Source: a virus (taxonomy: Duplodnaviria > Caudoviricetes). From it: 31,729 nt of DNA. This document shows positions 190-31,428 of the stretch, piece by piece; positions within the stretch are counted from its first letter, which is position 1; each line of letters starts with the position of its first letter. The notes under the pieces are model-generated. The model saw only the letters and a list, made by a program, of their open reading frames with translations, was not told where the DNA came from and did not search any database. The stretch is taken from positions 1-31,729 of IMG/VR virus record IMGVR_UViG_3300012940_000074; one strand, written 5' to 3'. Made by a program: the position numbers and the translations under genes.

Positions 190-370
190 CCGCATCCGCA
201 GCCTGTCCTGCCGACGTGTTTGCTGACTGCTGCTTGGCATTAACGTCTTCTTGGAGCGCATTCGCTTCTTCAGCAAACGTCGGCAGTGCCGCCATGAACG
301 TATCGGCACGGGTCGCAAAGTTCGCCGGATCAATCCGGCTCGGTGGCGTGGGGAGTGGGGTGATAGCCAT
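1..370 (-). CDS. Putative tail fibre / tail-tip protein, 5' part only (runs off the window)
   Basis: Not in the ORF track. ATG at 370 overlaps the upstream TGA (ATGA). Translates as MAITPLPTPPSRIDPANFATRADTFMAALPTFAEEANALQEDVNAK..., followed by Ala-rich 21-aa repeats, open to position 1. Confidence 0.8.
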   Translation of the reverse strand, partial: MAITPLPTPPSRIDPANFATRADTFMAALPTFAEEANALQEDVNAKQQSANTSAGQAADAATLAAQHKTDAQTAQVASEDAATLAGQHKTAAETARVASEDAAALAGQHKTAAETARVASEDA

Positions 371-1266
371 CAGATCAATCCTTCAATTTCAATGCTGCAG
401 TAAGCGAGCGTGGGATACGTGACCTCGATCGAGAAGTCACGATAGAAGCCGAACACTGTTTGGGACTGGAAACCTGCCGCATCGCTGCCGATCCACACGC
501 ATGGCGTCGCGCGTAGCTCGGACAGCACGCGGTGCACTTTGTTGAGCCTGGTTTTTTCCACTTCGAAGCGACCCGACATGCGCTTGCTGAACCGGCGTCG
601 CACGAATGTCGTGACGCCGGTTTCGCTCGTATCCTTGCGGCTGTAGTCGATGATGCCGATGTTCGATCCGCGCTGCGTGTCGCCCAAGTGCTGCGCCGTG
701 CCGAACACGAGCCCGCCGCATTTCACCATCCCGCCGCCGGCGATCTCGACGGTGACATGCGCGCTGCCGTACACTGGCAGATCGGTCAGCACTACTTCGG
801 TGAGTTGGTCGAACGGCTCAAAAAAATAGTCGTACCAGTCTGTCACCAAGGTACCGTCGAGCGCGCTTTCGTAGCTGTAGATCACCGGGCCACCCAGGCC
901 ATCCTGCACAGTCACTGTCAGGCTTGCCCCCTCCAGATTCAGGAGCGCCAGGCTATTGACGATGCCAGGGGCGACGACAACAGACAGCGGGCCACCCGAT
1001 GCATCGAAAGTCGTCTGCGAACTCACTTCCTGGTCGAACATCATCCACCGGTTTGTCGCCGACACTTGCGCCCAGTACGTCGCATTGCCACCAGGCGTGT
1101 GGTTGATGTTCGGCGTCTGCAGGCATTCCCAGACGACATGCTCATGAATGACGCGATCGCCGACGGCATAATCGGTCTCGCTATTCCATTCCGCATGGTC
1201 GTCCTCCGGTACGTTGGTGGAGATCAGCAGGGGCTCGGTAATCTCGATCGGTTTGATCACCTTCAT
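370..1266 (-). CDS. Distal tail-like protein with an N-terminal CBM5/12-like (chitin-binding type) module
   Basis: 298 aa, immediately after the tape measure gene (ATGA overlap). EWNSETDYAVGDRVIHEHVVWECLQ...PG...YW matches the W-x4-Y-x2-GD-x-V pattern of CBM5/12. Confidence 0.7.
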   Translation of the reverse strand: MKVIKPIEITEPLLISTNVPEDDHAEWNSETDYAVGDRVIHEHVVWECLQTPNINHTPGGNATYWAQVSATNRWMMFDQEVSSQTTFDASGGPLSVVVAPGIVNSLALLNLEGASLTVTVQDGLGGPVIYSYESALDGTLVTDWYDYFFEPFDQLTEVVLTDLPVYGSAHVTVEIAGGGMVKCGGLVFGTAQHLGDTQRGSNIGIIDYSRKDTSETGVTTFVRRRFSKRMSGRFEVEKTRLNKVHRVLSELRATPCVWIGSDAAGFQSQTVFGFYRDFSIEVTYPTLAYCSIEIEGLI

Positions 1267-4200
1267 ACGTTCTCCACACTCTCGACGTGTAACGGCTCGT
1301 CGTGGTCGTTCCGCACGTACATGCCGTCTTGCTCGATACGGCCCAGAAGTCGTGCCGTGGCACCGGTATTGGCAGCGGTTGCCCGTGATTCCGCGCGCAG
1401 GTTGGTCATTTCACGCCGCAGCAACGCCAGCTCGGCGTGCAGGGCACGAATCACAGCAGTGGGGTCGCCGCCGGCCGCGCCGCGCATGAACGCGGCAGTT
1501 TGACTGGCGTTCCAGATCCGGGCAGGGCCGGTCGCCTCCAACTCCGGGCCGTTCTCGCCAACCAGGCGCAAGCCTCCTGTGTGGTGCCCGCCGGCGGCGA
1601 ACGCAGCGACGGACTTACCGGTTAGCGCGTTAACGACCTGCTGCAGCCCGGCGGCTGTTCTGTCGCGACTCGCGTTGATCGCATCAACGATCAACCTCTC
1701 GGCCGACCGGGTCGAATCATCTAGCTCGGCCAGTGTCGCGTCGATCTGGCCGAGCAGTTCCAGGCTGTCTTCCTCGTAGCCGGCCGGCGCCAGGGTTTCC
1801 AGACGCTCGGCGACCGTCTCGGCGCGCGCCAGCGCTGTCGCCGCGAACCGAGTGTATTCGAGGTCGGTGCCATAGACCTCTCGAGCCTTCTCCAGCAGCG
1901 GATTGAGCAGGTTGTTGAGTTGGTCGCCGTAGCCAGCCAACGTTTCACCGTCGGTCGACAGCGCCATCGCATACGCGGTTGCGTATTGTTCCTGGAGCTG
2001 TTCGAATTGCTGCTCGGCCGAGAGTTGGCTGTAGCGATAGCTGTCCACGGTCCCGCGCAGTGTCGACGCGGTCGTGTTCATCAAATCAGCGAGCTGCTTC
2101 TGCGTCTCGTAGTAGCGCAAGGTCTCCTCGCGCAGCCGGCTCAACTTGTCAACCGATTTGCCGGCGTCGATTGCGAAGTCCTGCAGGGCGTCCGCATAGG
2201 CGAGCTGCGCAGCGCCCGCATTTTTTGCCGCGGTGTCCGCAGCTTTCTGAGCGGCGACCGTGGCTGCCTGGGCTTTTTCGAACGCAGCCTGCGCCGCTGC
2301 AATCTTCGCAGCCGACGCAGCGGCATTCGATGCCATCTGCTCCCGTGCCGTCTCCAGGGCAGTCAGCCGGTCGGCAAGCTTTTGTGTGAGCTGGCCATTA
2401 TCGACATTGAATCTCTCTGGTACGTAGGTTCCGGGGGCGATCGAACCGTCCAGTAACTTGCTAGAGTCATATTTCGTCAGGCGACGAATGTCGGCACGGC
2501 TGTTGTACAGGTTGATCAGGCTCGTTTCTCGGGACGCTACCCGTGCGGCATCCGCCGCCGCAAGCTTGTTCGCCGCGTCTTGCGCTACACCGATAGCTGC
2601 CAGTTTCTGCGCTTCGTCCGCGCGCTTTTGCTTCAGTGCTGCATCGGCGGCGGCCAGTTTGCTCTGCGTCGACAGCAAGGCCGCGTTGCTCGGCAAGTCG
2701 GTGTTGATGTCGGCGATCTGGCGCGCAATGGTCGATTTGCTCATCACCGTGGGGTCGATGATCTGCAGCGCCGCCTCGCGCACTGCGATACGCTCATTGC
2801 CGATGCTATTGATGACACCGGCGATGCGTTCTGCCAGGTTTTTGAACACGAGTTCCATCGTGGAGACGAATGTCGACGTGTCGACGTCCTGCAAGGCAGT
2901 CGCGAGGCCGGCCACGTCGACGATGGTGTCGTTTGCGCTCAGACGCAGGTTGTCGATCTGATCGTTCAGCAATGCGGCCGCGAGCTGGGCGCCGGTCAGG
3001 GTTGGCGAGATCGCTGCGCCGGCATCAGTGAAATAGATCAACCCGGAGCCAGCATCCATGAAGATGCGCGAAATCGCGCCGGCGATCGTGCCGGTCTGCT
3101 CCATATTGGATGCAAATGCCTGTGTGCCGATGGACGCAGCATCAAGGGCCGGTATCAGTTGGCCGCGTCCGGTGAATGTTTCGATCAGACGCTCTGCCGT
3201 TTCCTGAGCCATGCGCGCCGTCGTTTCTGCTGTCGCGGCGAACTGCGGAGCGATCGCAAGCAGCGTGGCATATGCAATCCGACCCGATTCCGTGTTCAAG
3301 TCCAGTGAAGCGGCGATATTGCGCAGCTCGTCCATCGTGCGCGGCATCGCAATGTTCACCGCGTCCAGCGCATCGGCCATTTGCCGCGCGCTGTCCTCGG
3401 CGCGCTCGGATTCAGAGTAGTAGAGCTGGTAGAACGTGGCGCTGGCCTGGCTCAGGTTTTCCATGCCGCCGAACGCATCGGCCAGCTTGCTCGCGGCATC
3501 GCCGCCGGCAAGCGACACTTGGAACAGCCGCTGGCGCAGCATCGACAGCCAGGAGTTGGCCCCAACAAGACTGCTGCTGAGCCGCTGCAGCGTGTCGCTT
3601 GCCGTCTCTCCGGTCTTGCCAAATTTCTCGATGCCGGGCGCGACCTCTTTAACGATGTCGTTTGTTACGTCGATGAGCAACTCGGCAATCAGCGTCTTGT
3701 TTTCCTCTTCATCCTTTGTGAGCTTGAGCTTGATGCTTTTCGCGTAATCATCGAGCTTGTCGGCCTCAAGCCCCAACGCCTCGGCGAAGCCGGCAGCCGA
3801 TGTTTTAATGGCTTCGAAGCTGGATGAGAGATAGTCGCGCAACTCAATGTCGAGCCCTTCCCGTGTAGTGCCGCGCTTGTCGCTCCTGAACCAGCCACCT
3901 TTCTGAACCCAGTTTTGATATGAATTGCCGTTGAAGCCGAGGTCGGAAAACTCGCCCTCGATGCCAAACGACTTGACTTCTTTTGGACCACGGCCGAACG
4001 CACGGTTCAGCACGCCACCGATCGCGCCGCCGATGATGGCGCCCAGAGGACCGCCGATCGAGCCGATCTGAGCGCCAAGGGCTGCACCGGACACAGTGCC
4101 GACAACCGGAGTGATCGAACTGCCGTATTTGCCGGAAATCATGTTGCCGAGGCCGATGCCGGCGCCGATGCCGCCGAGCCAGGTGCCCGCTACGCCGGCC

Positions 4201-6620
4201 ATCTGGCCGTAGCCGATCGAGTTTGCTACTCCGCTCATGCCGGCGGCGTTGTATGCCGACGCGGCCGCCGCTGCCTGGGCAGATGTCATGCCCATGCCGG
4301 CGCCGAATGCCGATACCGCCGACGAACCGAACATGTTGCCGGCCATCGATACGAGGCCGCCGAGACCGGCGCTCGCCGCACCGGAGAATCCATCCCACAG
4401 TGCTTTTCCGGCTGTGAGCATGTTGAGCGGGCTCGTTCCCGACCCGCCGATTGCGGACGCCGCTGCCGATGGTGAAAAAACAGATGCGACGGCGCCAGCG
4501 ACCGGCGACATGATCGTTTGCACGACCGGCCGCAGAACCAGCGTGCGGAAATAGTCCTTCAGATACTCGCCCGCACTTTTCCCACCGCGCATGATTGCGT
4601 CGGTCAGCGAGCGGCTGACGTCGTCGAACGATCGCTTCCATTCCTCCGCAGCTTTCGTCGCGGCCTTCGCATTTTCTTCCTGACTTTCATGAGAGCTGAT
4701 CGCTGCCGCCAGGCGCTTCCTGGCCTCGATTTCCCGGCCGAGCTGCGCGATCGCTTCGTCCGAGCCTTCGAACTGGAGTAGCGCGGCGCGCTTTTCTTCC
4801 AGGCGCGCGATCGCCAATTCCTCCAGCGCTGCCTTGCTTCGGCCATAGGTCGCGACCTCGTCTTCGAGCACCTGGGCCTTGGCGTTAATAGCGTTTATCT
4901 GTGCTTCGACTGCAGCGGCGTCTTTTTCGCGCTGCTTGCGGAATTCCTCGTGAGCCTTGTTCAGCTCCTCCGTGGCATCGATCTCGCGCAAGATGCCCGC
5001 GAGGGTTTCGGCCTGGGCGAGTTGCTCTTGCAGGCGTGCGCGGGTGCGCTCGTCTGTTGCGGCCTTCAACTGCTCGGAATAGCGCAGAGCGAGCTGTTCG
5101 CCTTCGTTGAGTTTCGCCGCAGCGGCGCCGTGCTCCTGGAGCTGCGCAAGGTACTGCTGTTCTGCCTGGATGCGAGCCCTCATGTTGGCCAGTTCCGATT
5201 CGCCATGTTGAGCAGCTTTCGGCTGGTACTTCTCTCGCACAATCGCGATCGCCTTCTGGATATCCAGCTCGCTGCGGCCCGCAGCCACGCCATCGGCGCG
5301 GACCTTGGCGATCTCCGCCTCCATCTTCTTCTGCTTGCTTTGCCCCTCGTACAGCACCTGCGAAAATCGGATGCCGGCTTGTTCGGCACGAACCCGTTCC
5401 GCCTCAGCTTCGGCAGCACGGTCGATCAGGTGAATGGTTTCCTGGCGCAGCGCCTTCTCGTCGGTCAGTGCCTGGAGGACTTGCCCCAGCGTCTGCGTAG
5501 AACCGAGGCCCGCCCGCGTGTTCTCGCCGTGCTGCGCGATTTGCGCGCGCACGGATTCGATACGCGCGTCCAGCACCGCCATCTGCTGCTCTGCAGTCTG
5601 ATCGCGGCCGATCGAAAGAACCTCGTCCAGCGCTTCCTTGCCAGCATTTTTAACGGCCTTCCATGCGCGTTCAATGAGACCGAGGCTCTCGGTAATGCGT
5701 GTTGCCCGAGCAGCCATGGCATCGGCATAGGTGGATTGAGCGAGCGCCGCCGCTTCCTCTTCCCGCCCCTGATCACGCAGTGCTCGGATCTGGTCGTACA
5801 CAGCGGCAGTCAGATAGCGGTACTGCTCATTGAGCTTCAGGCTGGCCTCGACCGGCGCCTTGCCGAGTTCGGCGAACTCCTTGACCGTGTCGCTGACGGC
5901 CTTGCCCACCGCACTTTCCATTTTCAGCGCCACTGTCGTGAAGCGCTCCAGATTGGCCGCGGCCACCCGGCCGGTTGATACCATTTCGGCAAGAGCCGCT
6001 GCAGCGGCCGACTGCGTGCCGGTCACGCGATCGATGCTCTCGGCCATGGCGTTGAGCTGTCCCACAGAGACGCCGGCAGCGTTGCCAGTCATGACGATCA
6101 CTTTGCGATACTCGTCACCTTCGCGCGATCCCTGGTTGTACGCCAAGGCAAGACCCACGGCCGCACCGGTTGCCAATGTCAGAGGATTGATCAGGCGGAG
6201 GACGTAGCCGCCGACCGCGCGAACCGCCGGCCCGATCCCGCCAAACATGTCCTTGAGCTGTCCGCCTTGCTGGAGCAGCACCGTCATCGGTGCCTGGCCG
6301 GATGCCAGCGACGTGAAGATGTCCGTCATCTGCGCCGGCACGCCACGCAATGCAGCGGCGGTCTGTTTGGCCGACATGCCGGTTCGTTTCGTCAGCGCCT
6401 CGGTTTCGTTCAGCACCTCGACATTGCGGCGATGTGATGATGCAAGCTCGGACGCAGTATTGCCAAGCTGCTCCTGCGTAGCCGCTACCGTCTTGGCGAC
6501 GTTCTCGGCCGTGGCGCCGATCTTCTTTGTCGCAGCCTCGACGTCGCCCAGGTTTGTGACGGCCTGCTTGTTGCCGTCGACCCTGATCTGGATGCCGAAC
6601 TGGATGAGCTTGCTTGTCAT
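1263..6620 (-). CDS. Tail length tape measure protein (lambda-type N-terminal domain)
   Basis: 1785 aa, Ala-rich. Has the lambda-family motif AALRGVPAQMTDIFTSLASGQAPMTVLLQQGGQLKDMFGG, a Gly-rich hydrophobic middle and a C-terminal FAAGGHHTGGLRLVGENGPEL. Confidence 0.95.
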   Translation of the reverse strand: MTSKLIQFGIQIRVDGNKQAVTNLGDVEAATKKIGATAENVAKTVAATQEQLGNTASELASSHRRNVEVLNETEALTKRTGMSAKQTAAALRGVPAQMTDIFTSLASGQAPMTVLLQQGGQLKDMFGGIGPAVRAVGGYVLRLINPLTLATGAAVGLALAYNQGSREGDEYRKVIVMTGNAAGVSVGQLNAMAESIDRVTGTQSAAAAALAEMVSTGRVAAANLERFTTVALKMESAVGKAVSDTVKEFAELGKAPVEASLKLNEQYRYLTAAVYDQIRALRDQGREEEAAALAQSTYADAMAARATRITESLGLIERAWKAVKNAGKEALDEVLSIGRDQTAEQQMAVLDARIESVRAQIAQHGENTRAGLGSTQTLGQVLQALTDEKALRQETIHLIDRAAEAEAERVRAEQAGIRFSQVLYEGQSKQKKMEAEIAKVRADGVAAGRSELDIQKAIAIVREKYQPKAAQHGESELANMRARIQAEQQYLAQLQEHGAAAAKLNEGEQLALRYSEQLKAATDERTRARLQEQLAQAETLAGILREIDATEELNKAHEEFRKQREKDAAAVEAQINAINAKAQVLEDEVATYGRSKAALEELAIARLEEKRAALLQFEGSDEAIAQLGREIEARKRLAAAISSHESQEENAKAATKAAEEWKRSFDDVSRSLTDAIMRGGKSAGEYLKDYFRTLVLRPVVQTIMSPVAGAVASVFSPSAAASAIGGSGTSPLNMLTAGKALWDGFSGAASAGLGGLVSMAGNMFGSSAVSAFGAGMGMTSAQAAAAASAYNAAGMSGVANSIGYGQMAGVAGTWLGGIGAGIGLGNMISGKYGSSITPVVGTVSGAALGAQIGSIGGPLGAIIGGAIGGVLNRAFGRGPKEVKSFGIEGEFSDLGFNGNSYQNWVQKGGWFRSDKRGTTREGLDIELRDYLSSSFEAIKTSAAGFAEALGLEADKLDDYAKSIKLKLTKDEEENKTLIAELLIDVTNDIVKEVAPGIEKFGKTGETASDTLQRLSSSLVGANSWLSMLRQRLFQVSLAGGDAASKLADAFGGMENLSQASATFYQLYYSESERAEDSARQMADALDAVNIAMPRTMDELRNIAASLDLNTESGRIAYATLLAIAPQFAATAETTARMAQETAERLIETFTGRGQLIPALDAASIGTQAFASNMEQTGTIAGAISRIFMDAGSGLIYFTDAGAAISPTLTGAQLAAALLNDQIDNLRLSANDTIVDVAGLATALQDVDTSTFVSTMELVFKNLAERIAGVINSIGNERIAVREAALQIIDPTVMSKSTIARQIADINTDLPSNAALLSTQSKLAAADAALKQKRADEAQKLAAIGVAQDAANKLAAADAARVASRETSLINLYNSRADIRRLTKYDSSKLLDGSIAPGTYVPERFNVDNGQLTQKLADRLTALETAREQMASNAAASAAKIAAAQAAFEKAQAATVAAQKAADTAAKNAGAAQLAYADALQDFAIDAGKSVDKLSRLREETLRYYETQKQLADLMNTTASTLRGTVDSYRYSQLSAEQQFEQLQEQYATAYAMALSTDGETLAGYGDQLNNLLNPLLEKAREVYGTDLEYTRFAATALARAETVAERLETLAPAGYEEDSLELLGQIDATLAELDDSTRSAERLIVDAINASRDRTAAGLQQVVNALTGKSVAAFAAGGHHTGGLRLVGENGPELEATGPARIWNASQTAAFMRGAAGGDPTAVIRALHAELALLRREMTNLRAESRATAANTGATARLLGRIEQDGMYVRNDHDEPLHVESVENV

Positions 6621-6627
6621 TGACTGT

Positions 6628-7028
6628 CTATGCCTGCCTGCTTCTCTTCTCGGCCATCACCGTTAATGCTTCGAGTTCCATCACACGGATGCCGTCGAAG
6701 ATATCGGCCCAATCCTTGCGCTTGATGCCGCGCTTGAGCTTCAGCACCGTTTCAAGCCTGCTGTAATTGATGCCGGTCCGAATCAGGCGTCCTTCATTCG
6801 CAACGATGTCCCACTGAGAATGCAGGGCCATGAACACTTCGACGATCTGGGCGTTCTCCGGCCATACTTCGAAACGCTCGATGTCATCCTCGGCTTGCAC
6901 CGGCACACCTTCGATTTCGCTGGCCAGGCCGAAGGCCGCCATGTCTTCGGCAACCTCGGTGCTGACATGGGCCTGGCCGAACTTCGCATCATTGCTGCCG
7001 CCGGCCCACCAGGCGGCAGCTTCCTTCA
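6628..7028 (-). CDS. Tail assembly chaperone, frameshifted (gpT/DUF1799-like) segment
   Basis: ORF 6628-6942 (FEVWPEN...F...QW...GINY...IRVMELEAL) extends upstream in frame as LKEAAAWWAGG... to the slippery site of the preceding gene. Confidence 0.8.
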
Positions 7029-7406
7029 GTTTTTTACCTTCGCTCCGCCGATTGTCGCGAAGAAGGTTTTAACGATCGAGGGACGCACCGGGAATACGTC
7101 CAGCAGCGCGGAAAGGTTCGCCTCGTTGAACTCCAGATCGGCACCGGATTCGTCCTGCACGCCAGCCCAGCCGACCATGACCATGCGAACCAGCTCGTCA
7201 TCGGTCAGGCGCTCAACTTCTTCATAGTCCTCCTCGCCTTCCTTGCTCTTGAATCCGAGCAGGCGGTCATTGATTTCATCGAGTTCGCTCTGCGTCAGGC
7301 GCTTGAACTCCGCCTGGAATTCGCGCTGAATGGTTTTGCCGCCATCGCTCGGGATGGCGACCTTGACGGTGGCGGTGTAGGTTGGATTGACTGCGAGCTT
7401 GAACAT
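7026..7406 (-). CDS. Tail assembly chaperone (gpG-like)
   Basis: 126 aa between the tail tube and tape measure genes. GWAGV motif, ends ...KVKN at a slippery heptamer, SD AGAGG. Confidence 0.85.
   Translation of the reverse strand: MFKLAVNPTYTATVKVAIPSDGGKTIQREFQAEFKRLTQSELDEINDRLLGFKSKEGEEDYEEVERLTDDELVRMVMVGWAGVQDESGADLEFNEANLSALLDVFPVRPSIVKTFFATIGGAKVKN
7029..7035 (-). other. -1 programmed frameshift slippery site A-AAA-AAC
   Basis: The minus strand reads GTA AAA AAC TGA. The -1 frame is open through 6628. Confidence 0.85.
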
Positions 7407-7473: not shown

Positions 7474-8421
7474 TTACAGGTTCGCGACGGCGACTTCGTC
7501 GTTGCCGTCGACCGGCGCCGGCTCCAGCGTCAGCTTGTATGCCAGCATTTCCTCGATCCGGTCGTACTCGACGTTTGCCACGCGCACCTTCAGGTCGGTC
7601 TTGAGCTGCTTGCCCGCCGTCGTGCCATGCGTGGTCGTTAAATCGACGACCTGGTTCGCCTCGCACAGCGCGAACGGGTCGAAGGTACCGATCGGCGGCG
7701 CGAGCACCATCAGGCTCGCCTGCGGCGCGCGATCGACGATCGCTACCTCACGGTGCGGGCCCGGAATATCGACGCGCGAAATGCTGTTGCCGAGGGACCA
7801 TTCCAGATCCGAGAACGCGAGATCGACGCCATTGAGCGTGGCCGGCAGCGTATTGATGCTGGTGACGCCTTCCTCGATCGTCCAGCCGGTACGCGTCACC
7901 GTCGGCAGTCCACCGGCAATCGGAGACAGGTACAGGAAGTCGTAGCTGAACGACAGCATCGGCGTGCCCTTTGCGGTCAGCTTGCAGCGCACGTCGCCCC
8001 GACCGCCGGTCAGCTTGTGCAGCACGCCGTCGATGTTGATGTATGCGCACACGCTGCCGAATGCGGTGCTGACCAGGTTGTACGCGACGGACGTATCCGC
8101 AACCGTCGTCTCGGCCATGCCGCAGCCGAGCATCAGCGCCCCCCATTTCGGGGCGGTGCCCACCGTGCCGGAGCCGGCATACGCAACGTCGAAACTCAGC
8201 TTGGCCCACTTCGAAACGACCACGCTGCCGCTGCTGCCCATGTAAGGCAGCTCGATGTTGCGATCGGCACGCTCGACGTCCATCGGCGTCAAGGTCACAT
8301 TGCGCGCCTCGATCCAGTTTGCCTCGCCGGTCGGCGTGGCATCTTCGCCATAACTGGCTTCGGGTTTCACCAGGATGGCCTTGTTCTTCCACTGGCGCGG
8401 GGTAGCGATCAGATTAGCCAC
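7474..8421 (-). CDS. Major tail tube protein (non-contractile tail)
   Basis: 315 aa, beta-rich, begins ...ILVKPEASYGEDATPT. It lies before the chaperones and there is no sheath gene. GTG start with SD AAGGAG. Confidence 0.8.
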   Translation of the reverse strand: MANLIATPRQWKNKAILVKPEASYGEDATPTGEANWIEARNVTLTPMDVERADRNIELPYMGSSGSVVVSKWAKLSFDVAYAGSGTVGTAPKWGALMLGCGMAETTVADTSVAYNLVSTAFGSVCAYINIDGVLHKLTGGRGDVRCKLTAKGTPMLSFSYDFLYLSPIAGGLPTVTRTGWTIEEGVTSINTLPATLNGVDLAFSDLEWSLGNSISRVDIPGPHREVAIVDRAPQASLMVLAPPIGTFDPFALCEANQVVDLTTTHGTTAGKQLKTDLKVRVANVEYDRIEEMLAYKLTLEPAPVDGNDEVAVANL

Positions 8422-8626
8422 GCTTCTTCTCCTTCACAGATTTAACGGGTTTGATGGGGGCAGCCGGCTGTTCCTGCTGCGCGCCAGCGGCCTGCGCTTC
8501 CCGGACCGGTTCGCGCCTGCCGCTGGCGGGATCGAAGACGTACCGCCCGCCGATTCCCCAGTTCGGAGACTTCGCAAAGTCCGCCGTGCCAGGAAGAGGC
8601 CGTGCTTGCTTGTCTGCGGTTTTCAT
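8414..8626 (-). CDS. Small conserved phage protein (GGRYVFDPxxGxR type), ~70 aa
   Basis: ATG 8626 with SD AGGAG and an ATGA overlap. Sits between the tail terminator and tube genes. Confidence 0.65.
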   Translation of the reverse strand: MKTADKQARPLPGTADFAKSPNWGIGGRYVFDPASGRREPVREAQAAGAQQEQPAAPIKPVKSVKEKKRG

Positions 8627-9045: not shown

Positions 9046-9440
9046 GGCCGCCCCGAGCGCTTGAATACCGCCTCGGTCGGCGCGACCATCACCACCTCGG
9101 CCGAGCCGCCGCCGGATACATTGGCAGCGCCCTGGAGCACCACCCGGCCTGACTGGACGTCACGCAGCCATGCGATCGCATCCTTGTGGTCGTCGCGGGC
9201 GCGGTCGGTCGCGGCGTCGCCGAGCAGCATGTAGCGCGCGATCGCGCAGGCGTACTGCGGCAGGTTCGCCGGCACCGACGACAACGGCAGGACGTAACGC
9301 GTAGCCAGGTAGCCGTTAATCAGCGCGTCGGCGCCGTCGAGAATCTGATCGAGCGCGCCGTCCGGCAGGGCCGATTCGCGTTGTGCGATTTCGGCCTCGC
9401 CGTAGCGTGCCTCCAGTGCCTGGCGCGATGCGTAGGGCAT
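9042..9440 (-). CDS. Head-tail adaptor (Mu gp36/J, DUF1320-like)
   Basis: MPYAS...RYG...INGYLATRYVLPL...CAIARY...AIAWLRDV is the typical gp36 pattern. Confidence 0.9.
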   Translation of the reverse strand: MPYASRQALEARYGEAEIAQRESALPDGALDQILDGADALINGYLATRYVLPLSSVPANLPQYACAIARYMLLGDAATDRARDDHKDAIAWLRDVQSGRVVLQGAANVSGGGSAEVVMVAPTEAVFKRSGRP

Positions 9441-11458: not shown

Positions 11459-12025
11459 TCAGGCCTGCTCGGCTTGCTGTGTCTTCAGGAAGTCTTCCTG
11501 TGAGATGCCCATGGCGGCGCACAGTGCGGCCTGGTTGGGCGTGAGGCTGCCGCCCTGATTGGCTGGCGCTTTGCCGCCGGTCTGTGTGCCGTTCAGGTGC
11601 ACGACCGGCGGCGCTTTCTCGATGTACGCGGTCAGCGCAGCCAGATCCTTGGCGCCGAACTCGCGCGCCCACGACTCCATGGACGGCAGCAGCTTGCCGG
11701 CCGCAATCGCGCCGGAGACCAGGTTGTCGATGCGGGTCTTGTTCAGCTCGCCGGTCAACTGCGCGACCTGGCTCTGCAGGTCTTGCACCAGGCCGATGGC
11801 GACGAACTTGGAAGGATCAGGCGTGGCGCCCGACAGGCTGGCGATCTGCTCGCGCTGGGTCTGGATGTGGGCGATCAGGTCAAAGCTGGCGGCGGCGGTG
11901 GCTTCACCTCCCATGCCATCCCTGATTGCCTGGGTCAGCTTTTGAAGCTGGGCCAGGATGTCTTCTGCGGTGCTGCCGACAGGCAGGTTCAGCAGCCAGC
12001 GCAATTGTTCAAGCAGTTCATCCAT
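11459..12025 (-). CDS. Nested in-frame scaffolding protein (Mu gpZ-like)
   Basis: Internal ATG (MDELLEQLRWLLNLP) preceded by SD CAGGAG within an AT-richer linker, as in Mu I/Z. Confidence 0.7.
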   Translation of the reverse strand: MDELLEQLRWLLNLPVGSTAEDILAQLQKLTQAIRDGMGGEATAAASFDLIAHIQTQREQIASLSGATPDPSKFVAIGLVQDLQSQVAQLTGELNKTRIDNLVSGAIAAGKLLPSMESWAREFGAKDLAALTAYIEKAPPVVHLNGTQTGGKAPANQGGSLTPNQAALCAAMGISQEDFLKTQQAEQA

Positions 12026-12631
12026 GCTTTTCTCCTGAGTGAGTGAAGTGGTACGAGGCGACGCGAAAAGCTGGGTCGCAGCAGCTAACAAGACTTCCTC
12101 CATCCCATGGATGGCGGGGTTGTTGGTGATGGCGGCCATGAACAGCGAAACGACATTGCCTTCTTTGTCGTAGCCGATGACCGGGGAGATGTAGCGGTAC
12201 TCGCCGGCCGCGATCATTTCCTTGGCCCGCTCCGTCCACTCCACGTCGACGGCAAACAGGCCGACGCCTTCGCGCCACTCCAGCTTGCGGAACCAGCCGG
12301 CGGCCGGCGCGGGCTGGCCGTTGGTCTGAGCGCGCAGAGTCTGGTGCTCGTAGTCGATGACGTAGGGGTTCTTGCGGGCTGCGGCGGCATTGATCAGTAC
12401 CTCGGCAAGCGCAGCGTCGATGTGCCAGTGCGGCGCATCTTCGGGTCGCCCGTCGAAGCCGCGGAAGTCGCCGGCCGGCATGAGCTGCAGTTCATTCCCG
12501 GCAGTGACGGCCAAGGAGCATGCCGCCAGCCCGGTCAGGGCGGCGGTGGCGCTGCGGGCGCCAAGCGCGGCGACCAAAACCGGAGCGGAGGTGGCGGCAG
12601 ACAGCGCAGCGATGTGTGGCGTGGAGTGCAT
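11459..12631 (-). CDS. Prohead protease I (Mu gp32-like) with C-terminal scaffold domain
   Basis: IDYEHQT, PAPAAGW, VEWTERA, EYRYISPV and AAITNNPA motifs. Confidence 0.93.
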   Translation of the reverse strand: MHSTPHIAALSAATSAPVLVAALGARSATAALTGLAACSLAVTAGNELQLMPAGDFRGFDGRPEDAPHWHIDAALAEVLINAAAARKNPYVIDYEHQTLRAQTNGQPAPAAGWFRKLEWREGVGLFAVDVEWTERAKEMIAAGEYRYISPVIGYDKEGNVVSLFMAAITNNPAIHGMEEVLLAAATQLFASPRTTSLTQEKSMDELLEQLRWLLNLPVGSTAEDILAQLQKLTQAIRDGMGGEATAAASFDLIAHIQTQREQIASLSGATPDPSKFVAIGLVQDLQSQVAQLTGELNKTRIDNLVSGAIAAGKLLPSMESWAREFGAKDLAALTAYIEKAPPVVHLNGTQTGGKAPANQGGSLTPNQAALCAAMGISQEDFLKTQQAEQA

Positions 12632-12637
12632 GCCCGC

Positions 12638-12682
12638 ATCGTGTCAGCGCGCGCGCAGGCTGCCACTACTGACACCTGTCAG
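12638..12682 (-). promoter_or_regulatory. Activator-dependent late promoter (PI-like)
   Basis: Palindrome CTGACA-CC-TGTCAG (12669-12682), 25-bp spacer, then -10-like CACGAT (12643-12638). Confidence 0.7.
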
Positions 12683-12699: not shown

Positions 12700-12870
12700 G
12701 ATTTGCGGGAAACCGCGATATTGAGGGACGGCAATGGAGCCGCGAATCGAAAACGAGGCCGTTAAAGCCGCGTTAAAAACTTCCGCCGCCCAATCGGTGC
12801 GGGTATGTACTGCCCGGCACCGTTAAAAACGCTCCAATCGGCCGAAATCCGAACCGGGTTTTGCGCTCGG
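12700..12870. other. Candidate strong gyrase site (SGS)-like element
   Basis: Non-coding G-I interval, where Mu carries its SGS. Short A/T tracts in roughly helical phase and three CGTTAAA copies. Confidence 0.5.
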
Positions 12871-19467: not shown

Positions 19468-19705
19468 TTTTAACGGGGCACGTAAACGAGACGGTGTTGA
19501 TCTCGCGCTTGCTCCGATTGACAATGGTCAGCCGGCCGGTGCCGCGCAAGGAATCGCAGTCGATCACGATTTCCATGTTCGGCTTCGCTGGCTTTTTCTC
19601 TGCAGCCGGAGCGGTTCCCGCTCCTGGTTTCGAAGCCTCTTCGGCTGTCGCAGTGGTGGTGACCGTCATCAGCGCGACGGTCAGGGCAAGCAATGGGCGC
19701 GTCAT
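19460..19705 (-). CDS. Small secreted protein (81 aa), unknown function
   Basis: ATG 19705 with SD GAGGA and an ATGA overlap. Signal peptide MTRPLLALTVALMTVTTTATA; two Cys. Confidence 0.65.
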   Translation of the reverse strand: MTRPLLALTVALMTVTTTATAEEASKPGAGTAPAAEKKPAKPNMEIVIDCDSLRGTGRLTIVNRSKREINTVSFTCPVKNV

Positions 19706-23152: not shown

Positions 23153-23424
23153 GATGTTCTCCCTGCTTGATGTCCCTTCTTCCCCAGTACCCGCTTGTGC
23201 AGCCACATGCTCGCCACGATCCCGAACGGCCCGCCGAGCATGTACGCTGCGATCTCCAGCAGGTCACCCTGCGGCACGGTGCGCAGGATGACCAGGTTGC
23301 TGCCGCTGATCAGGAAGGACGTTAAAAACGCCGCGACGTAATGCCCCTTGTTGACGTTCAGCGACTGAAAGCCGAGCGAGGCCACCAGCAGGAACGTGGT
23401 TGCGAACAGGATGAGGGCGCTCAT
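23149..23424 (-). CDS. Small multi-TM membrane protein (91 aa)
   Basis: Three hydrophobic segments; translationally coupled on both sides. Confidence 0.75.
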   Translation of the reverse strand: MSALILFATTFLLVASLGFQSLNVNKGHYVAAFLTSFLISGSNLVILRTVPQGDLLEIAAYMLGGPFGIVASMWLHKRVLGKKGHQAGRTS

Positions 23425-24943: not shown

Positions 24944-25305
24944 CAGTTCACCCGCTCGTTCCAGCGGACTTCGCAGCCGGCGATCAACACGTAGCCGTAT
25001 CGGGCAACGCCCTTGCTGTCCGTCTTGATCGTCATGCCATTTCCAGCGCGCGAGAGAAACGGTGCAGCCGAGCGTTCGACAAGAATGGAAGGCCGCTCGC
25101 CGGCCAGGTCGATCATCAGAACCGATGCATAGCCGTGTTGGCGCAGCCAGCGCAGCGTGCTGTTTGCCGTCTGCAGCTTCTTGGTCAACTCGGCAGTGAG
25201 CACCTTGGGCGCGAACGCTTGACCCTTGGGCTCGGCAAGCACGGCCGCAATCTGTGCGCGCAGCTTGATCGGTAGGGCGCGGTAATCGGTGGGTGCAGCC
25301 ATCAT
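24943..25305 (-). CDS. Hypothetical protein, possible winged HTH
   Basis: 120 aa; SD GGAGG; coupled to both neighbours. Confidence 0.7.
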   Translation of the reverse strand: MMAAPTDYRALPIKLRAQIAAVLAEPKGQAFAPKVLTAELTKKLQTANSTLRWLRQHGYASVLMIDLAGERPSILVERSAAPFLSRAGNGMTIKTDSKGVARYGYVLIAGCEVRWNERVN

Positions 25306-25820
25306 TCGGTCCTCCCTTCGTTGTTGTCCTGAATGAGCGGCCCGCCGACTTCCGGCAGCGGGAGCGTGACCTTGTCGATGACGCCGGCCTGCTGCGGAGG
25401 CTCGTCGACGTCGGCGGTCTTGCGGGGCGGCTTACCCGGTACGGATGCCTGGGTGCCGCGTTTAACGCGCTTCGGGCATGTCTGACATGCGCGCCAGTGC
25501 TGCATCTCGCGCGGACTGTTTGTCGGCGCTGACTCGCGGTAGGCGTACTCGCGGCACTGCAGGCCGGTAATTCGGTGCTCCTTGCCGTGGTACTCGGAAA
25601 GAAATGGACACTCGACCAGGCCAATCGTGTTCATGACCTTCTCTGCCACCTTCGACGTATCGGCCTTGCCGGTTCCGTATGGCCCGCAGCAATTGAGAAT
25701 CTGCGAGACGGCCGAGCGTGAAATGCCGACGCGCTGCGCGGTCTTGCTGATGCTGCCGGTCGCCGCCGCATCCGCGCGCAGGATGGCAAGCCATTCAGGC
25801 TCGTTCGAGGGCGATGTCAT
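25302..25820 (-). CDS. HTH DNA-binding protein with a Cys cluster
   Basis: ISKTAQRVGISRSAVSQIL HTH; CPF...C...ACQTCP; SD AAGGA. Confidence 0.8.
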   Translation of the reverse strand: MTSPSNEPEWLAILRADAAATGSISKTAQRVGISRSAVSQILNCCGPYGTGKADTSKVAEKVMNTIGLVECPFLSEYHGKEHRITGLQCREYAYRESAPTNSPREMQHWRACQTCPKRVKRGTQASVPGKPPRKTADVDEPPQQAGVIDKVTLPLPEVGGPLIQDNNEGRTE

Positions 25821-26424
25821 ATTGCTTTCCTTCGTTCTGATCGAATACCGTGCCGGACGCCACCTGCGGCACCGGCGGCAGCGGGCCGGTGTCGCGCAAG
25901 AGCAGGTAGCGCTTCGCGCCATTCGATGTGGAAGACTGCGGCGCTTCACGGTGACGCATCTCGGAGAGGTAACCAGCGCGGCAGAGAAACCGCAGGTACT
26001 TCTGGAGATTGTTTTGTGCGCGGCGGATGTCGCCTTCTTCGGTGCCGGCGTCCAGCAGCACGCCGAGCAGTTCGGGTACGCTGGCCTTGCGCCGGATGCG
26101 CAGCACGCGCCACGCGCGGTCGCGCAGCGAGTTGACGACCACCTTCGGCTTGCCGGTCGGCGCTTTCGGGCCACTGATCAGCTTCGCACCTTCCTCCAGT
26201 GCGGCTTGGCCGAGGGCGGTCAGCCGGTAGCAGCCCGGTTTGACCGTGTCGTCGGCGTAGAGCTGGCGCTCCAGATATCCATGCGAGACGAGCTTGGCGC
26301 ACGCATCGGCGACCTGCCGCGCCTTGAGCCCGGTGTGCTTGACGATGGCCGCGTGTTTAACGCAGCCTTTCGGGCAGACCAGCGCCTTGACGGCTTCCAT
26401 CACGGCTTGCGATGTCCAGGTCAT
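25795..26424 (-). CDS. Tandem winged-HTH protein (209 aa)
   Basis: Start MTWTSQAV; YRLTALG, LRDRAWRVLRIRRK, YLLLRDTGPLPP. Typical of the region after B. Confidence 0.8.
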   Translation of the reverse strand: MTWTSQAVMEAVKALVCPKGCVKHAAIVKHTGLKARQVADACAKLVSHGYLERQLYADDTVKPGCYRLTALGQAALEEGAKLISGPKAPTGKPKVVVNSLRDRAWRVLRIRRKASVPELLGVLLDAGTEEGDIRRAQNNLQKYLRFLCRAGYLSEMRHREAPQSSTSNGAKRYLLLRDTGPLPPVPQVASGTVFDQNEGKQYDIALERA

Positions 26425-27527: not shown

Positions 27528-29726
27528 TCAGACAGCCACCTTAAAAACTTCTCCCTCCGCCCCGTCCCAAGCCAGGCCAAGCGCTTCGAACCGTTCACGC
27601 AGCGCCTCGTAGATATCGCTGCCGACGAAGCCGGCCAGGAATTGGCGATCGCTTTCAGTCCAGGCGTCGCGGTGCTGCATGAGCCATTCGTAGCGATCGG
27701 AATCGATCATGAAAATCGGGCGCGCGTTACTGGTGCTGCTTGCCTCTGCAGGCGAGTGTGCGAAGACCTCGATCGCTTCCTCGCGGCGAACGCTCAGATC
27801 GCCCAACTCCAGCACCGGGCTAGCGTTGTTCTTCAGGGCGAAGGTGGCGTCCTGCACGTCGTGCATCGGCGCCCCTTGCTGCTCCAGGCGTACTTCCTGC
27901 AGCTTGGCTTCCAGCCGGCGGGCACGGCCATCCGCGCGCTTGCGGGCGGCCCGTTCCAGGAACGATTCGGAGAAGTAAGCGCGCTTGTTCGCCTCGAAGC
28001 CCGCTGTGCAGATGAAGCGGCCCTGCTGGTCGTACACCCACACCTGGTCGCCATCGTGGATGTCGTAGGCCACGCGCACGACGTCGCCGTGGTACTCGGT
28101 CAGCTCCTGGGCGAAATACAGGTTGTTGAACAGGCGAATCTCGCCGCGCAGCACCTTGGCCTCGCGTTGCGGGCGGAACAGCTCACGTGCTTCGGCCTTG
28201 GTCACGGTGACCAGTTGCGCGCCTTCCTTGACGCCGTGCTCCCACGCCTCGTTCGGCGACATGTGCCGGCGGCGGCCGAGCGTCGGATCGAACACCATCG
28301 GCAGGCTGCGGTGCGGCCGGTTGTTGTAGGTCGCGATCTTGTCGTTGCAGAAGGCGATGAAATCGTTAAACGGCATCAGGTACTTGCTGCGGCCGGCGAG
28401 CACCACGTCACGGCGCGTCAGCTTGTGCACCTTCTGCTTGGCTTGCGCGTCCATGGTGGCGCCGATGTAGGTCGGCAGCTCCTTGGCGGCGCGGACCCAC
28501 AGCGTTTGATGGGCGCGCTCGATGACGCCGCGCGCCTGCGAGTTGTAGGCAATCGAGTGCGTCATCGTGAAGCCAAGGCGACTCGACATGCCGATGCCGG
28601 GTTGGCTCATCAGCGCGTTCTTGTAGCCGGAGCCGTTGTCGACGTAGAAGGCAGAGGGGATGCCGCCGATTTCGCAGGCGTGGCGCAGGGCGTCCAGGAC
28701 GGCCAGGCCACTTTCCGCAAGATCTACGCTCCAGCCCACTGCACGCCTGGTAGCGACGTCGAGCACGGTCGTCACTTCGGGGCGGAACGGCTTGCCGTGT
28801 GCCGGGTGCGCAATCTCGGCGTCGAAGGTGTGGCCGTCGGCGGTGTACACGTCGGCCGGCCACAGCATGCCGCTGTCGCGCCGGACGAAAGGCTTGATGT
28901 TCTTGAGGTCGCGCGGGCCCATGCGACCGGCCTGCAGCTCGACGTTTCCCATCTTGCCGAGGAGCCGGCGCGCGCGGTGATAAAGGGCGTCCTTGTCCAG
29001 GCCGTGCTTGGCAGCCACTTGCTCGACTGCCCAGGCGAGGCTGGGCTTCTGCGGCCGCTGGTATTCGACCATTAGGTCGGTCGCCCAAGCGGGGATGCGT
29101 ACTACAGCGTGCTGATCCTTCGGTGCCAGGGCATCGACGGCATTAACGCCGGCTGCAGCTGGCTGGTACGCCTTGAACCAGTCGTAAATGGTGCGGCGGC
29201 TGAGCGTGCGCTTGCCGTCGCGGCCGGCGCGGGCGTTCGCCACAGGCACGAGCTGCGCAAGGTGCTCGGGCAGTGTGCCGTCCTGCGCCATGATGACCAC
29301 CTTCATGATCGCTTTCTCGCGGCCCACGATCTGGGCGATGCGGTCGACCTCGCGCAGGATCGCGGCGCGCGCCTCGGCGGTGCGCTTCTGCCAGTCCTTT
29401 AACGCACCGGCTTGGGTGGCGACCGTCATCGCAGTGGAGGCTGCGCTGGCAGGGGGAAGGGGGCTGCCAGATGGAATGACGGCCGCCGCCGAAGCCGGCG
29501 CGGATTGTGTGAGGGCGCGGATGACAACCTGATCCTTGATGGCCGCCATGATCAGCGCCGGCGGCGCGTACTCGCGGCGGATTCCGCCGCGTCCTCGCGT
29601 GCCCTTGACCTCGATCGATGGCCACTTCTCGCGTGCGACCAGCACCTCGATCCCTTGGCGGGAGCGTGGCAGACCTTCGAGGCCAAACGCGAGCAGTTCG
29701 GCTGTGGTGTAGTAGGTCTTGATCAT
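27528..29726 (-). CDS. Mu-type DDE transposase A (732 aa)
   Basis: N-terminal Mu HTH (GRGGIRREY), DDE core TADGH / YVDNGSGY / RGVIER, YNNRPHRSL and Mu C-terminal domain. Start at 29726 by ATGA overlap. Confidence 0.96.
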   Translation of the reverse strand: MIKTYYTTAELLAFGLEGLPRSRQGIEVLVAREKWPSIEVKGTRGRGGIRREYAPPALIMAAIKDQVVIRALTQSAPASAAAVIPSGSPLPPASAASTAMTVATQAGALKDWQKRTAEARAAILREVDRIAQIVGREKAIMKVVIMAQDGTLPEHLAQLVPVANARAGRDGKRTLSRRTIYDWFKAYQPAAAGVNAVDALAPKDQHAVVRIPAWATDLMVEYQRPQKPSLAWAVEQVAAKHGLDKDALYHRARRLLGKMGNVELQAGRMGPRDLKNIKPFVRRDSGMLWPADVYTADGHTFDAEIAHPAHGKPFRPEVTTVLDVATRRAVGWSVDLAESGLAVLDALRHACEIGGIPSAFYVDNGSGYKNALMSQPGIGMSSRLGFTMTHSIAYNSQARGVIERAHQTLWVRAAKELPTYIGATMDAQAKQKVHKLTRRDVVLAGRSKYLMPFNDFIAFCNDKIATYNNRPHRSLPMVFDPTLGRRRHMSPNEAWEHGVKEGAQLVTVTKAEARELFRPQREAKVLRGEIRLFNNLYFAQELTEYHGDVVRVAYDIHDGDQVWVYDQQGRFICTAGFEANKRAYFSESFLERAARKRADGRARRLEAKLQEVRLEQQGAPMHDVQDATFALKNNASPVLELGDLSVRREEAIEVFAHSPAEASSTSNARPIFMIDSDRYEWLMQHRDAWTESDRQFLAGFVGSDIYEALRERFEALGLAWDGAEGEVFKVAV

Positions 29727-30163
29727 GCGCCCACCCCGAGCATCCGTTCCATTGCTTGCATGCGCCGCTTGATGTCGTCGCTCATCGCCTTCAGCTTCCC
29801 GTACTCGGCGTTTAACGCATCGCGGCCCACGGCCAGACGGGCGCCCCGCTTCGTGGCAAGCCAGGAAGACATCGCGTGCGACTTGCACGCCGCTTCTGCA
29901 GCGGGCACCAGGTAGAAGGGGATGTTGTAGGCGTCGCGGCTTTCCGACGTCCATGCGTCGAGCATGTATTTGCTGACCTCACGTCCAGTCAGGCGCGACA
30001 TTTCCGCGGCGATCTGGAAACGGTCCATGCCCGATTCCGCGAACATGGTGCTCAGCAGGGCCGCAACCTCTGCCCCGTAGTTCATGCTGGCCGGATTGGG
30101 CGCTGGCGCCTGCGGCACCATGAACATGTCGTCAGTGAAGAGATCGCGATTGCGGCGGGACAT
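29723..30163 (-). CDS. Conserved regulatory-type protein between ner and A
   Basis: 146 aa, RFQIAAEMSRLTGREVSKYMLDAWTSESR; SD GGAGG. Confidence 0.8.
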   Translation of the reverse strand: MSRRNRDLFTDDMFMVPQAPAPNPASMNYGAEVAALLSTMFAESGMDRFQIAAEMSRLTGREVSKYMLDAWTSESRDAYNIPFYLVPAAEAACKSHAMSSWLATKRGARLAVGRDALNAEYGKLKAMSDDIKRRMQAMERMLGVGA

Positions 30164-30165
30164 GT

Positions 30166-30483
30166 CTACGCCCTCCCTGCCGCATGAACATTGCAGTCAT
30201 GACTGCAATTCTTGATACTATCCAGTGCGTTTAACGCACCCGTCCGCTTGGCCTTTTTCGCCGCGCGTTTCGCGTATCTGGTAGGCCAGATTTCCTGTGG
30301 CTTGACTCCGATCGCAGCCGCGATGATTCCTTCAGCCTTCGGCCAGGAGCGTTGCAACGCAATGGAGAGTGCCGTTGGGTAGTAACCGTTGTCCCGCGCC
30401 AGTTGCCGAAGACTCGTTTCATTCATGCGCAGCCGGGCAACGATCATTGCCGAGTGCCAGTCCGCTTTTTGTTTGGATTTCAT
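30166..30483 (-). CDS. ner: Ner/Nlp-family HTH regulator
   Basis: DWH...SLRQLAR...WPKAEGIIAAAIGVKPQEIWPTRY; divergent from the repressor. Confidence 0.93.
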   Translation of the reverse strand: MKSKQKADWHSAMIVARLRMNETSLRQLARDNGYYPTALSIALQRSWPKAEGIIAAAIGVKPQEIWPTRYAKRAAKKAKRTGALNALDSIKNCSHDCNVHAAGRA

Positions 30484-30675
30484 TGTTGGCCGCGATGTTT
30501 AACGTGTAGACATGGCGGCATGTTAATTCATTCGCGCAAAATTGCGCGAATGAATAATCACTATTTGCTTATTTGAATTAATTAGGTTTTGCTAAAACGC
30601 GCAAAATCAACGACCTAGGAATATGCAAGTGCGCAAATATTCGTGCTGCTCCGTTGCATATTGGGGACTGTGAAT
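30484..30675. promoter_or_regulatory. Divergent immunity/operator region
   Basis: AT-rich. Perfect inverted repeat ATTCATTCGCGCAA-AA-TTGCGCGAATGAAT (30526-30555) and further GCGCAAA copies at ~30599 and 30631. Confidence 0.8.
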
Positions 30676-31428
30676 ATGCAACTCGACTCGAAGCTGTTCG
30701 AAGAGCGCCTGAAAGAGGCGGTCAGGCCGGAGCCGCTTAATCGGTGGTGCGACCGGGTGGGCGTGAGCTACTCCACGCTGAACAGTGCGTTCAGGAGAAA
30801 GGCCATCCCGAACACCGAGCTGGTGGCCCAGATCAGCATTGCCCTGGGCAAGTCAGTCGACTGGCTGCTCGGCCTGACCAATGAACCGTCCCGGATGCTC
30901 AGCTACGGCGCCATGCTGATCGAGGATCAACCGCGAGCCATCCCGCACGGAGAGAGCGAGAGCGCAGAGGAACAGGGCACCACGGACTGGAGCGAGTTCG
31001 TGCAGGTTCCTCTCTATGACGTCAGCGCTTCTGCGGGGCATGGAGCCTTTGCGCCATCGCATGAGAATGTCGATCGGTACCTAGCATTCCGTCGGGACTT
31101 CATCCAGGGGGTACTGGGCCTAAATTCGGCTCGGCTTTATTGCATCAAGATTCGTGGTGTCAGCATGGAGCCGCTATTGCGGAACGGGCATCCTGCCCTT
31201 GTCGACCCGGACGACAATGAAGTGTTGTCCGAGGGGCCGCATTTCCTGCGTATGGAGGGCGCGCTGCTCGTTAAAAACCTGCAGCGTCTCCCGGGCGCCC
31301 GGCTGCGTATCTGGTCCGAGAACCAGACAACCAGCGCCTACGCGCCGATCGAGCTGGACTGGCCGCCACGTGAAGGCGTAGATCTGCAGGTGCTCGGCCG
31401 CCTTCGGTGGTCCGACTGCATTTTCTGA
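30676..31428 (+). CDS. Phage repressor, HTH plus S24 (LexA/CI-type) peptidase domain
   Basis: N-terminal HTH (...SVDWLL), SAG cleavage site, GVSMEP Ser and VKNLQ Lys. ATG 30676 preferred; GTG 30643 is the alternative. Confidence 0.92.
   Translation: MQLDSKLFEERLKEAVRPEPLNRWCDRVGVSYSTLNSAFRRKAIPNTELVAQISIALGKSVDWLLGLTNEPSRMLSYGAMLIEDQPRAIPHGESESAEEQGTTDWSEFVQVPLYDVSASAGHGAFAPSHENVDRYLAFRRDFIQGVLGLNSARLYCIKIRGVSMEPLLRNGHPALVDPDDNEVLSEGPHFLRMEGALLVKNLQRLPGARLRIWSENQTTSAYAPIELDWPPREGVDLQVLGRLRWSDCIF

Follow-up and report, generated by a model that had tools for sequence, protein, structure and literature searches.

Bacteriophage Mu has to tell its own 37 kb of DNA from that of its host, a task linked to genome immunity and to a chromosomal domain that involve MuB, the strong gyrase site (SGS), and IHF, Fis, and HU (PMC7350765). 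The domain requires the SGS, MuB, and further Mu sequences, the SGS alone being insufficient (PMC3820752), and genome immunity is described as unexplained, with "more to be learned" (PMC7350765). The available portions of these two papers describe no sequence mark for immunity. Here, we analyze a short DNA word, TTTAACG, that is scattered over a Mu-like phage genome contained in a 31,729-nucleotide stretch from a Caudoviricetes virus (IMG/VR record IMGVR_UViG_3300012940_000074; henceforth, the window). An earlier note, made from the sequence alone, had pointed to a genome-wide WTTAACG motif (W, A or T) and read it as a self mark at the DNA level. We find that the word is a real, phage-specific, selected mark, and that it also forms a tandem repeat with helically phased flanks between genes G and I, where the gyrase site of Mu lies.

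Family searches of the window's proteins identified a Mu-like siphophage with its genes on the minus strand; the right end of the phage is missing from the window. Its nearest relatives belong to Noviherbaspirillum, Undibacterium, and other Burkholderiales (Betaproteobacteria). Compared with one of them, G001 (G and L numbers are our handles for related loci), protein B is 93% identical and TerS 91% identical.

TTTAACG as a phage-specific DNA mark

The window contains 37 TTAA tetramers, 29 of which occur as TTAACG or CGTTAA, at the coordinates of the earlier count (29 of roughly 36). As also claimed, all but one are preceded by A or T: 21 are TTTAACG, seven are ATTAACG, and the remaining one is a palindrome. 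The resulting density is about one per kb, also within genes. An order-2 Markov model predicts 2.65 copies of TTAACG, of which we count 30 with the palindrome taken twice, and 0.52 copies of TTTAACG. The word occurs on both strands and in all four stop-free frames (TTTAACG, 2/3/3/8), and nine of the 15 TTA codons lie inside the motif, in agreement with the earlier remarks on orientation, frame, and leucine codon use. The 40 called genes hold 22 copies of WTTAACG, compared with a mean of 2.4 (maximum 8) in 1000 synonymous-codon shuffles and 3.3 (maximum 9 in 300) under a dicodon null built from 34 non-enriched relatives; the excess thus persists under Markov and codon-preserving nulls alike. 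Over the whole family, the core word is TTTAACG; enrichment of ATTAACG is limited to the window and G001.

The enrichment is confined to the phage. In five related prophages, WTTAACG occurs at 0.50-1.31 per kb vs 0.03-0.11 per kb in the rest of the genome, a 6-17-fold difference that ends sharply at the prophage borders (4-kb bins). The earlier note would have been undone by a host with the same bias; none of these five hosts, which are those of related prophages and not the window's own, has it. Pooled host coding DNA of relatives, drawn from 13 unselected stretches and from the DNA flanking 10 prophages, contains 10 copies of TTTAACG where 25 are expected; the pool excludes seven host stretches that had been chosen for clusters (21 vs 12 expected, lower GC). 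The deficit in host coding DNA (L408-L420 and the prophage flanks) is an observation in its own right; hosts may avoid the word, or the deficit may come from a codon-pair effect. Strand skew per replichore was absent among the first 100 of 206 sites in the G001 chromosome (47 plus, 53 minus), with both strands mixed throughout 0-3.26 Mb. Four non-Mu prophage regions residing in three of the same hosts, taken around portal genes and including one that may be a remnant, were unenriched (0 vs 1.4, 2 vs 1.9, 4 vs 4.4, and 1 vs 0.8), as were phages Mu, B3, BcepMu, and HW12. For these relatives, we therefore rejected a host-wide bias, Chi, or an uptake sequence as the source of the word.

To place the word among relatives, we surveyed 230 units, each a whole prophage or a locus no shorter than 9-11 kb, which reduced to 158 distinct ones: 19 strongly enriched for TTTAACG, 15 weakly enriched, three enriched for TCTAACG, two for CTTAACC, 89 not enriched, and 30 unclassified. 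Strong phages sit in several clades of the B tree next to non-enriched kin and cluster in certain host groups (Oxalobacteraceae). At positions where a relative has the same residue as the window, strong phages use the word in 16 of 33 cases, compared with 0 of 15 for non-enriched and 0 of 4 for weak phages, and compatible tripeptides carry the word in 78/417 vs 16/856 cases. This comparison of synonymous sites, which the earlier note had suggested, argues for selection at the DNA level, because strong phages use the word where the protein allows it and non-enriched phages do not.

The scattered copies are spaced at random (coefficient of variation 1.0 over 347 gaps), without a flank signal, and are spread evenly over genes of the early, middle, and late classes; in several phages, some of them are found immediately upstream of ner, gp26, or DUF3164. 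Both orientations occur on both arms (74/87 on the left, 46/50 on the right), and mirror pairing about the center was not found (22 matches vs 19, and 54 vs 48, expected), so a polar or mirror arrangement was rejected. At the window's left end the word is missing, and between c and ner it shows no clustering; a transposase end or enhancer site was discarded on this ground.

The central tandem and the words that follow it

As the earlier note stated, three copies lie in the interval between G and I (at 12760, 12771, and 12821). The first two form an 11-bp direct repeat, CGTTAAA-N4-CGTTAAA, that recurs in most relatives, including non-scattering ones and the Pseudomonas phages HW12 and Ab30. The tandem is the core element, and the scattered copies are an amplification that was gained or lost several times. 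In the window, it lies 18.8 kb from the likely left end; in four cultured phages (Mu, RS138, HW12, and Ab30), it lies at 48.7-52.7% of the genome length, and its orientation flips between phages. In Mu, a degenerate copy with the same 11-bp period, TTAAACC-GGTA-TTTAACG, occupies 17916-17933, that is, +37 to +54 relative to the cut annotated for gyrase at 17879/80. The right arm of the SGS spans +26 to +85, and its first 40 bases are called essential and phased in a review (PMC6463007); the degenerate copy falls within them.

The DNA beside the tandem is phased with the helix. AT power at 10-11.5 bp over the adjacent 80 bases averages 3.31 in the central flanks of 64 relatives, compared with 2.01 in 426 other intergenic stretches and 1.79 in shuffles; the values for the window and Mu are 4.49 and 2.61. 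The flanks of scattered copies are unphased (1.65 and 1.87 vs 1.79 for shuffles), and we rejected the idea that these copies are miniature gyrase sites. The G-I position and the phased arm are both features of a Mu-type SGS, and together with Mu's degenerate copy they suggest that the genome center is its counterpart. An SGS of the Mu type is further marked by one strong gyrase cleavage site with processive supercoiling, and by a delay of replication and end pairing when it is deleted.

When the central word differs, the scattered word usually differs with it. Phages G006 and G037 scatter TCTAACG (11 vs 1.2 and 16 vs 1.4 expected) and carry CGTTAGA in their tandem; in G037, the scattered word led us to predict the variant tandem before it was found. 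G022 and L292 scatter GGTTAAG (13 vs 2.2 and 13 vs 1.6) and have GTTAAG in their tandem, and L196 scatters its central word GGTTAAA (7 vs 0.4). Across 20 phages with a perfect tandem, CGTTAAA occurs 214 times vs 31 expected. Undibacterium phages G002 and G011 differ from G006 in their word within one host genus. The concerted change of scattered and tandem words argues for a single reader of both kinds of site. In L217 and L206, both half-sites are CGCTAAA, and the A-B-H1-H2 block is 33-49% identical to that of G013 and L208, compared with mostly 81-98% elsewhere; this block, which includes two helix-turn-helix (HTH) genes described below, is the main difference between the two pairs and was swapped, and both half-sites changed.

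Several other repeats were seen in and around this interval. A CTGAC...GTCAG dyad at 12640-12665, 45-50 bases upstream of gene I, is conserved in many relatives and is likely a late-activator site. The G-I interval of G012 contains GGCTACA repeats (13 vs 2.9 in coding DNA); these were rejected as a variant tandem, a canonical TTTAACG tandem being present upstream of F. A different word, CGGATCC, is enriched in all frames in the G008 prophage and in L168 (20 vs 4.3 and 12 vs 2.5; host flank, 1 vs 5.6) and is possibly a second mark. The H2 protein of G008 has leucine in place of the arginine discussed below. In Ab30 (L421), the published candidate gyrase site (18769-18805) covers an inverted repeat in an insert between G and I. 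By comparison with relatives, a triple CGTTAAC/CGTTAGA repeat at 19630-19656, 0.85 kb away, would be the better SGS candidate. The inverted repeat is an anti-CRISPR promoter.

Candidate readers and competing explanations

The window encodes a short B of 244 residues that aligns to MuB only from residue 93; it has the AAA+ module of full-length MuB and lacks the N-terminal HTH on the same chain. Behind it lie two HTH genes, H1 and H2. The best match of the H2 profile in the Protein Data Bank is the MuB N-terminal domain (2mqk, E 0.0033). Its structural model (pLDDT 87) scores Z 5.7 against 2mqk, tied with other HTH proteins, and Foldseek returned no match at E 0.001 for the H2 or GemA models. 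H2 has four invariant cysteines and the recognition helix S34-R35-S-A-V-S, and is predicted to be the split-off N-terminal domain of MuB. The same apparent split, into a short AAA+ B and a separate HTH/zinc protein resembling the N-terminal domain, is seen in other phages, including Pseudomonas Casadabanviruses.

Where a locus covers both regions, a strict tandem occurs in 51 of 58 cases with H1/H2 and in 4 of 13 without, and in 49 of 55 with arginine at the start of the H2 recognition helix and none of five without. Later records at least 80% complete (8 of 25 searched) gave 3/3 with arginine and 0/5 without, two of these five having been counted in the earlier set. Pooled scattered counts are 499 vs 114 expected in arginine phages, 42 vs 35 in non-arginine phages, and 75 vs 79 in 25 phages with full-length MuB; no alternative scattered word was evident in five non-arginine phages. 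Arginine is present in all 20 strong dispersers of the B tree, on which the strong and non-arginine labels need five changes. The Fisher values (about 1e-4) overstate the case, because the helix consensus is generic and the rows are related. The tracking of the tandem by this arginine suggests that H2 may read the word, and its domain ancestry suggests that it may couple to B. Nearest-neighbor and column tests on GemA, Mor, TerS, DUF3164, A, and B singled out no gene. GemA was rejected as the reader, since L217 and G013 have 98% identical GemA proteins and different central words, and since its C-terminal half is modeled like that of lambda Red-beta; Ner, Mor, and TerS received no support. Accessory genes, methylases included, were likewise discarded, as none tracks the strong class. 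From the binders proposed in the earlier note, one HTH protein, H2, is thus favored by correlation, and GemA and Ner are not; the roles offered there, in domain folding, end synapsis, or immunity, stay at the level of proposals.

We propose that TTTAACG is read by H2, that B is thereby held on phage DNA, that the genome is looped, and that self-insertion is barred, an account we find plausible, if slightly short of an even bet. Binding of H2 to the heptamer would be tight at the central tandem and single at scattered sites, and bound H2 would retain the B ATPase on the phage genome. The genome would fold into one loop, a domain of its own with the center at the loop tip, and the folded DNA would be shielded from self-insertion. 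We base the suggested function on an analogy to the chromosomal domain and the genome immunity of Mu. We more tentatively extend this to a large clade that would have split MuB, in which the freed N-terminal HTH domain would be a sequence-specific reader and co-evolve with a private seven-base password serving both to seed the central loop and to confer whole-genome immunity, the arm of the Mu SGS being a degenerate relative.

Several observations weigh against this H2 model. Many arginine-H2 phages (G024-G030, HW12, and Ab30) carry the tandem alone, without scattered copies, so scattering is not needed for growth, and six arginine loci lack a strict tandem. G006 and G020 share the helix YSRTSVSLAL and prefer different words; L395 is non-arginine yet shows 15 copies vs 5.7 expected; L217 has a CGCTAAA tandem yet no scattered CGCTAAA (0 vs 0.8); and SRxxxS is a common HTH consensus in related rows. 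The random spacing and the lack of polarity and of mirror pairs leave a zipper version of the model unsupported. The MuB N-terminal domain was judged non-DNA-binding in a filament structure (PMC11292022), and the right arm of Mu is retold as working on purified gyrase without a phage protein (PMC10052514, PMC6463007). Ab30 inserts into itself, with most self-insertions in the central domain (PMC5977238). Its insertion-free gap (18,769-18,805, allowing for 33 extra leading bases of the record) ends on one TCTAACG and lies about 0.85 kb from the tandem, so that it does not match as a tandem footprint.

Direct repeats with an 11-bp period are typical of winged-helix readers such as PhoB and CtrA, and uptake sequences have a density near one per kb; both facts bear on other explanations. 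Gyrase of the host, or one of its conserved DNA-bending proteins, may read the word directly; the tandem would then be an optimized wrapping arm, and the scattered copies would be extra loading points by which the phage domain stays supercoiled. The place of the tandem, Mu's copy in the essential right arm, the phased flank, and the flipping orientation all fit this, as does the phased TTTAAA that alone is retained by two non-arginine phages and also occurs in phages without H1/H2. We nevertheless consider it unlikely, given the unphased flanks of scattered sites, a word that varies within one host genus, and the unenriched hosts and co-resident non-Mu prophages. Another phage protein, either H1 or transposase A through its N-terminal domain, could instead fill the same folding and immunity role: H1 travels with H2 and B, the 11-bp repeat would suit a winged-helix reader such as H1, and A, if it bound within the genome, could remove B in the manner of cis-immunity. 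However, the same word accompanies several A types and two H1 classes that share about 20% identity, and the word is missing from the left end and unclustered in the operator region, which makes this quite unlikely.

The even cover of early, middle, and late genes and the sites upstream of ner, gp26, or DUF3164 would also suit a phage silencer or regulator that nucleates at the sites and coats the prophage, setting transcription rather than transposition. Such a role is decidedly improbable: the strongest site is orientation-free at the geometric center (49-53% in the four cultured phages) and apart from the conserved promoter elements beside gene I, and the candidate readers belong to the transposition operon. 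The clustering of strong scattering in Oxalobacteraceae and its repeated gain or loss recall a target for DNA modification, packaging, or anti-defense protection. With no methylase or other accessory gene tracking the word, non-Mu prophages in the same cells lacking it, and the link to the central tandem left unexplained, we regard this as highly improbable; the phage-specific mark of the earlier note stands on the nulls, frames, hosts, and central tandem, and its alternative of a modification target finds no support. Finally, a host-wide signal (Chi or an uptake sequence) or a codon-pair artifact is scarcely credible. The density resembles that of uptake sequences, but the chromosomes of five relatives' hosts and the co-resident non-Mu prophages are unenriched, replichore skew is lacking, and the codon and dicodon nulls are exceeded about 7-9-fold.

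Features of the window and comparison with known systems

The features and word sites of the window are collected in the table.

Features of the window and positions of the word, with the strand on which each lies
Feature	Position	Strand	Remarks
Partial tail gene, ATTAACG	239..245	+	
Tape measure gene, palindrome CGTTAACG	1628..1635	no strand	not preceded by W
Tape measure, TTTAACG	3648..3654	+	
Tape measure, ATTAACG	4883..4889	-	
Tape measure, TTTAACG	5649..5655	+	
Tail chaperone, ATTAACG	6661..6667	-	
Tail chaperone, TTTAACG	7068..7074	+	
Tail tube, TTTAACG	7636..7642	-	
Small tail gene, TTTAACG	8441..8447	+	
Head-tail adaptor, ATTAACG	9314..9320	-	
Gene I (head protease)	11459..12631	-	right border of central interval; phrog_328
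Central head-to-tail tandem, TTTAACG-CGGC-TTTAACG	12760..12777	-	11-bp period; G-I interval
Tandem flank, phased AT/GC	12778..12870	-	third TTTAACG at 12821-12827; predicted gyrase-wrapping arm
Gene G (neck)	12871..13398	-	left border of central interval; phrog_26
Gene F, TTTAACG	14521..14527	-	
Portal, TTTAACG	15292..15298	+	
Portal, ATTAACG	15973..15979	+	
Large terminase, ATTAACG	17211..17217	+	
Large terminase, TTTAACG	18101..18107	-	
Lysis region gene, TTTAACG	19469..19475	+	
91-aa gene, TTTAACG	23320..23326	-	
H2, Cro/XRE-type HTH and four-cysteine (predicted zinc) domain	25302..25817	-	proposed reader; phrog_2119 (function unknown in PHROG)
H2 gene, TTTAACG	25461..25467	+	
H1, two winged-helix-like domains	25795..26424	-	alternative or partner reader candidate; phrog_2030, Pfam HTH_27, MarR-type matches
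H1 gene, TTTAACG	26356..26362	+	
B, AAA+ transposition ATPase, 244 aa	26729..27463	-	without MuB N-terminal domain; phrog_296, AAA_22
Transposase A	27528..29726	-	phrog_310, Mu-transpos_C
Transposase A, TTTAACG	28364..28370	-	
Transposase A, ATTAACG	29142..29148	+	
Transposase A, TTTAACG	29398..29404	+	
phrog_2345 regulator, TTTAACG	29811..29817	+	
ner, TTTAACG	30230..30236	+	
Just upstream of ner, TTTAACG	30498..30504	+	
Repressor c, TTTAACG	31269..31275	-	
Likely left end of phage	31590..31606	-	begins TGTGAGGGG, like Ab30's TGTGGGGAG; likeness only

The families named in the window are repressor, Ner, transposase A, B, DUF3164, GemA, Mor, lysis, terminase, portal, F, G, I, capsid, and a long non-contractile tail. 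A near-perfect long palindrome between ner and c (30524-30556) is likely an operator, and the cut tail gene at the contig end holds a 63-bp tandem repeat (1-160; 79% identity at that period). The GemA protein (21292-21732) is modeled as two three-helix bundles joined by a flexible linker, and its C-terminal half resembles the C-terminal bundle of lambda Red-beta (Z 8.0, root-mean-square deviation 2.2, 59 residues). The solved complexes of that Red-beta domain are with lambda exonuclease and the tail of the single-stranded DNA-binding protein SSB. A preprint calls GemA uncharacterized and reports that it licenses Gabija (bioRxiv 10.1101/2025.08.30.673261).

The findings bear on two questions raised for Mu, namely, how 37 kb of own DNA are protected and what closes the domain beyond the SGS (PMC7350765, PMC3820752). 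They offer a named word, a candidate reader with a candidate residue, natural specificity variants, and pairs of phages with and without scattering, as well as a sequence rule for locating the central site in split-MuB phages, including Pseudomonas Casadabanviruses, where the site was earlier placed elsewhere. If the proposed model is true, a mobile element would possess a sequence-encoded self/non-self system for which no precedent has been described, and genome engineering would gain a tool, a seven-base tag able to exclude or organize transposition. Our literature searches, with most subscription journals outside their scope, found no report of a genome-wide heptamer or such a tandem in Mu-like phages; the Mu repeat may already figure among the bending motifs given in the primary paper dissecting the SGS.

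Chi, DNA uptake sequences, and HIP1 are marks of the host chromosome and have host proteins as their readers. Like them, TTTAACG is short, dense in genes through synonymous choice, and randomly spaced. Unlike them, it is underrepresented in hosts, shows no skew between strands, and varies among phages of one host genus: Chi is over-represented in its host and strand-skewed, whereas TTTAACG stands at 10 vs 25 in relatives' hosts and 47/53 by strand, and the five hosts do not reach the roughly one per kb of an uptake sequence. The nucleoid-occlusion sites of SlmA and Noc are longer chromosomal palindromes that act on division. They likewise place a protein at scattered sites to bar a polymer-forming machine; the phage word is a seven-base, asymmetric one, and would act on transposition if the model holds. 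The CtrA box is TTAA-N7-TTAAC, and the tandem has its TTAA-N7-TTAA spacing; CtrA is alphaproteobacterial, whereas the nearest hosts here are Burkholderiales and the tandem also occurs in Pseudomonas phages. The closest comparison remains Mu, which shares the central position between G and I, the phased arm, and an 11-bp-period repeat in its right arm. In Mu, MuB is full-length and the word is not scattered (10 vs 7.6); here, the tandem is a crisp CGTTARA repeat (R, A or G) whose unit is also scattered and which co-varies with a split MuB module.

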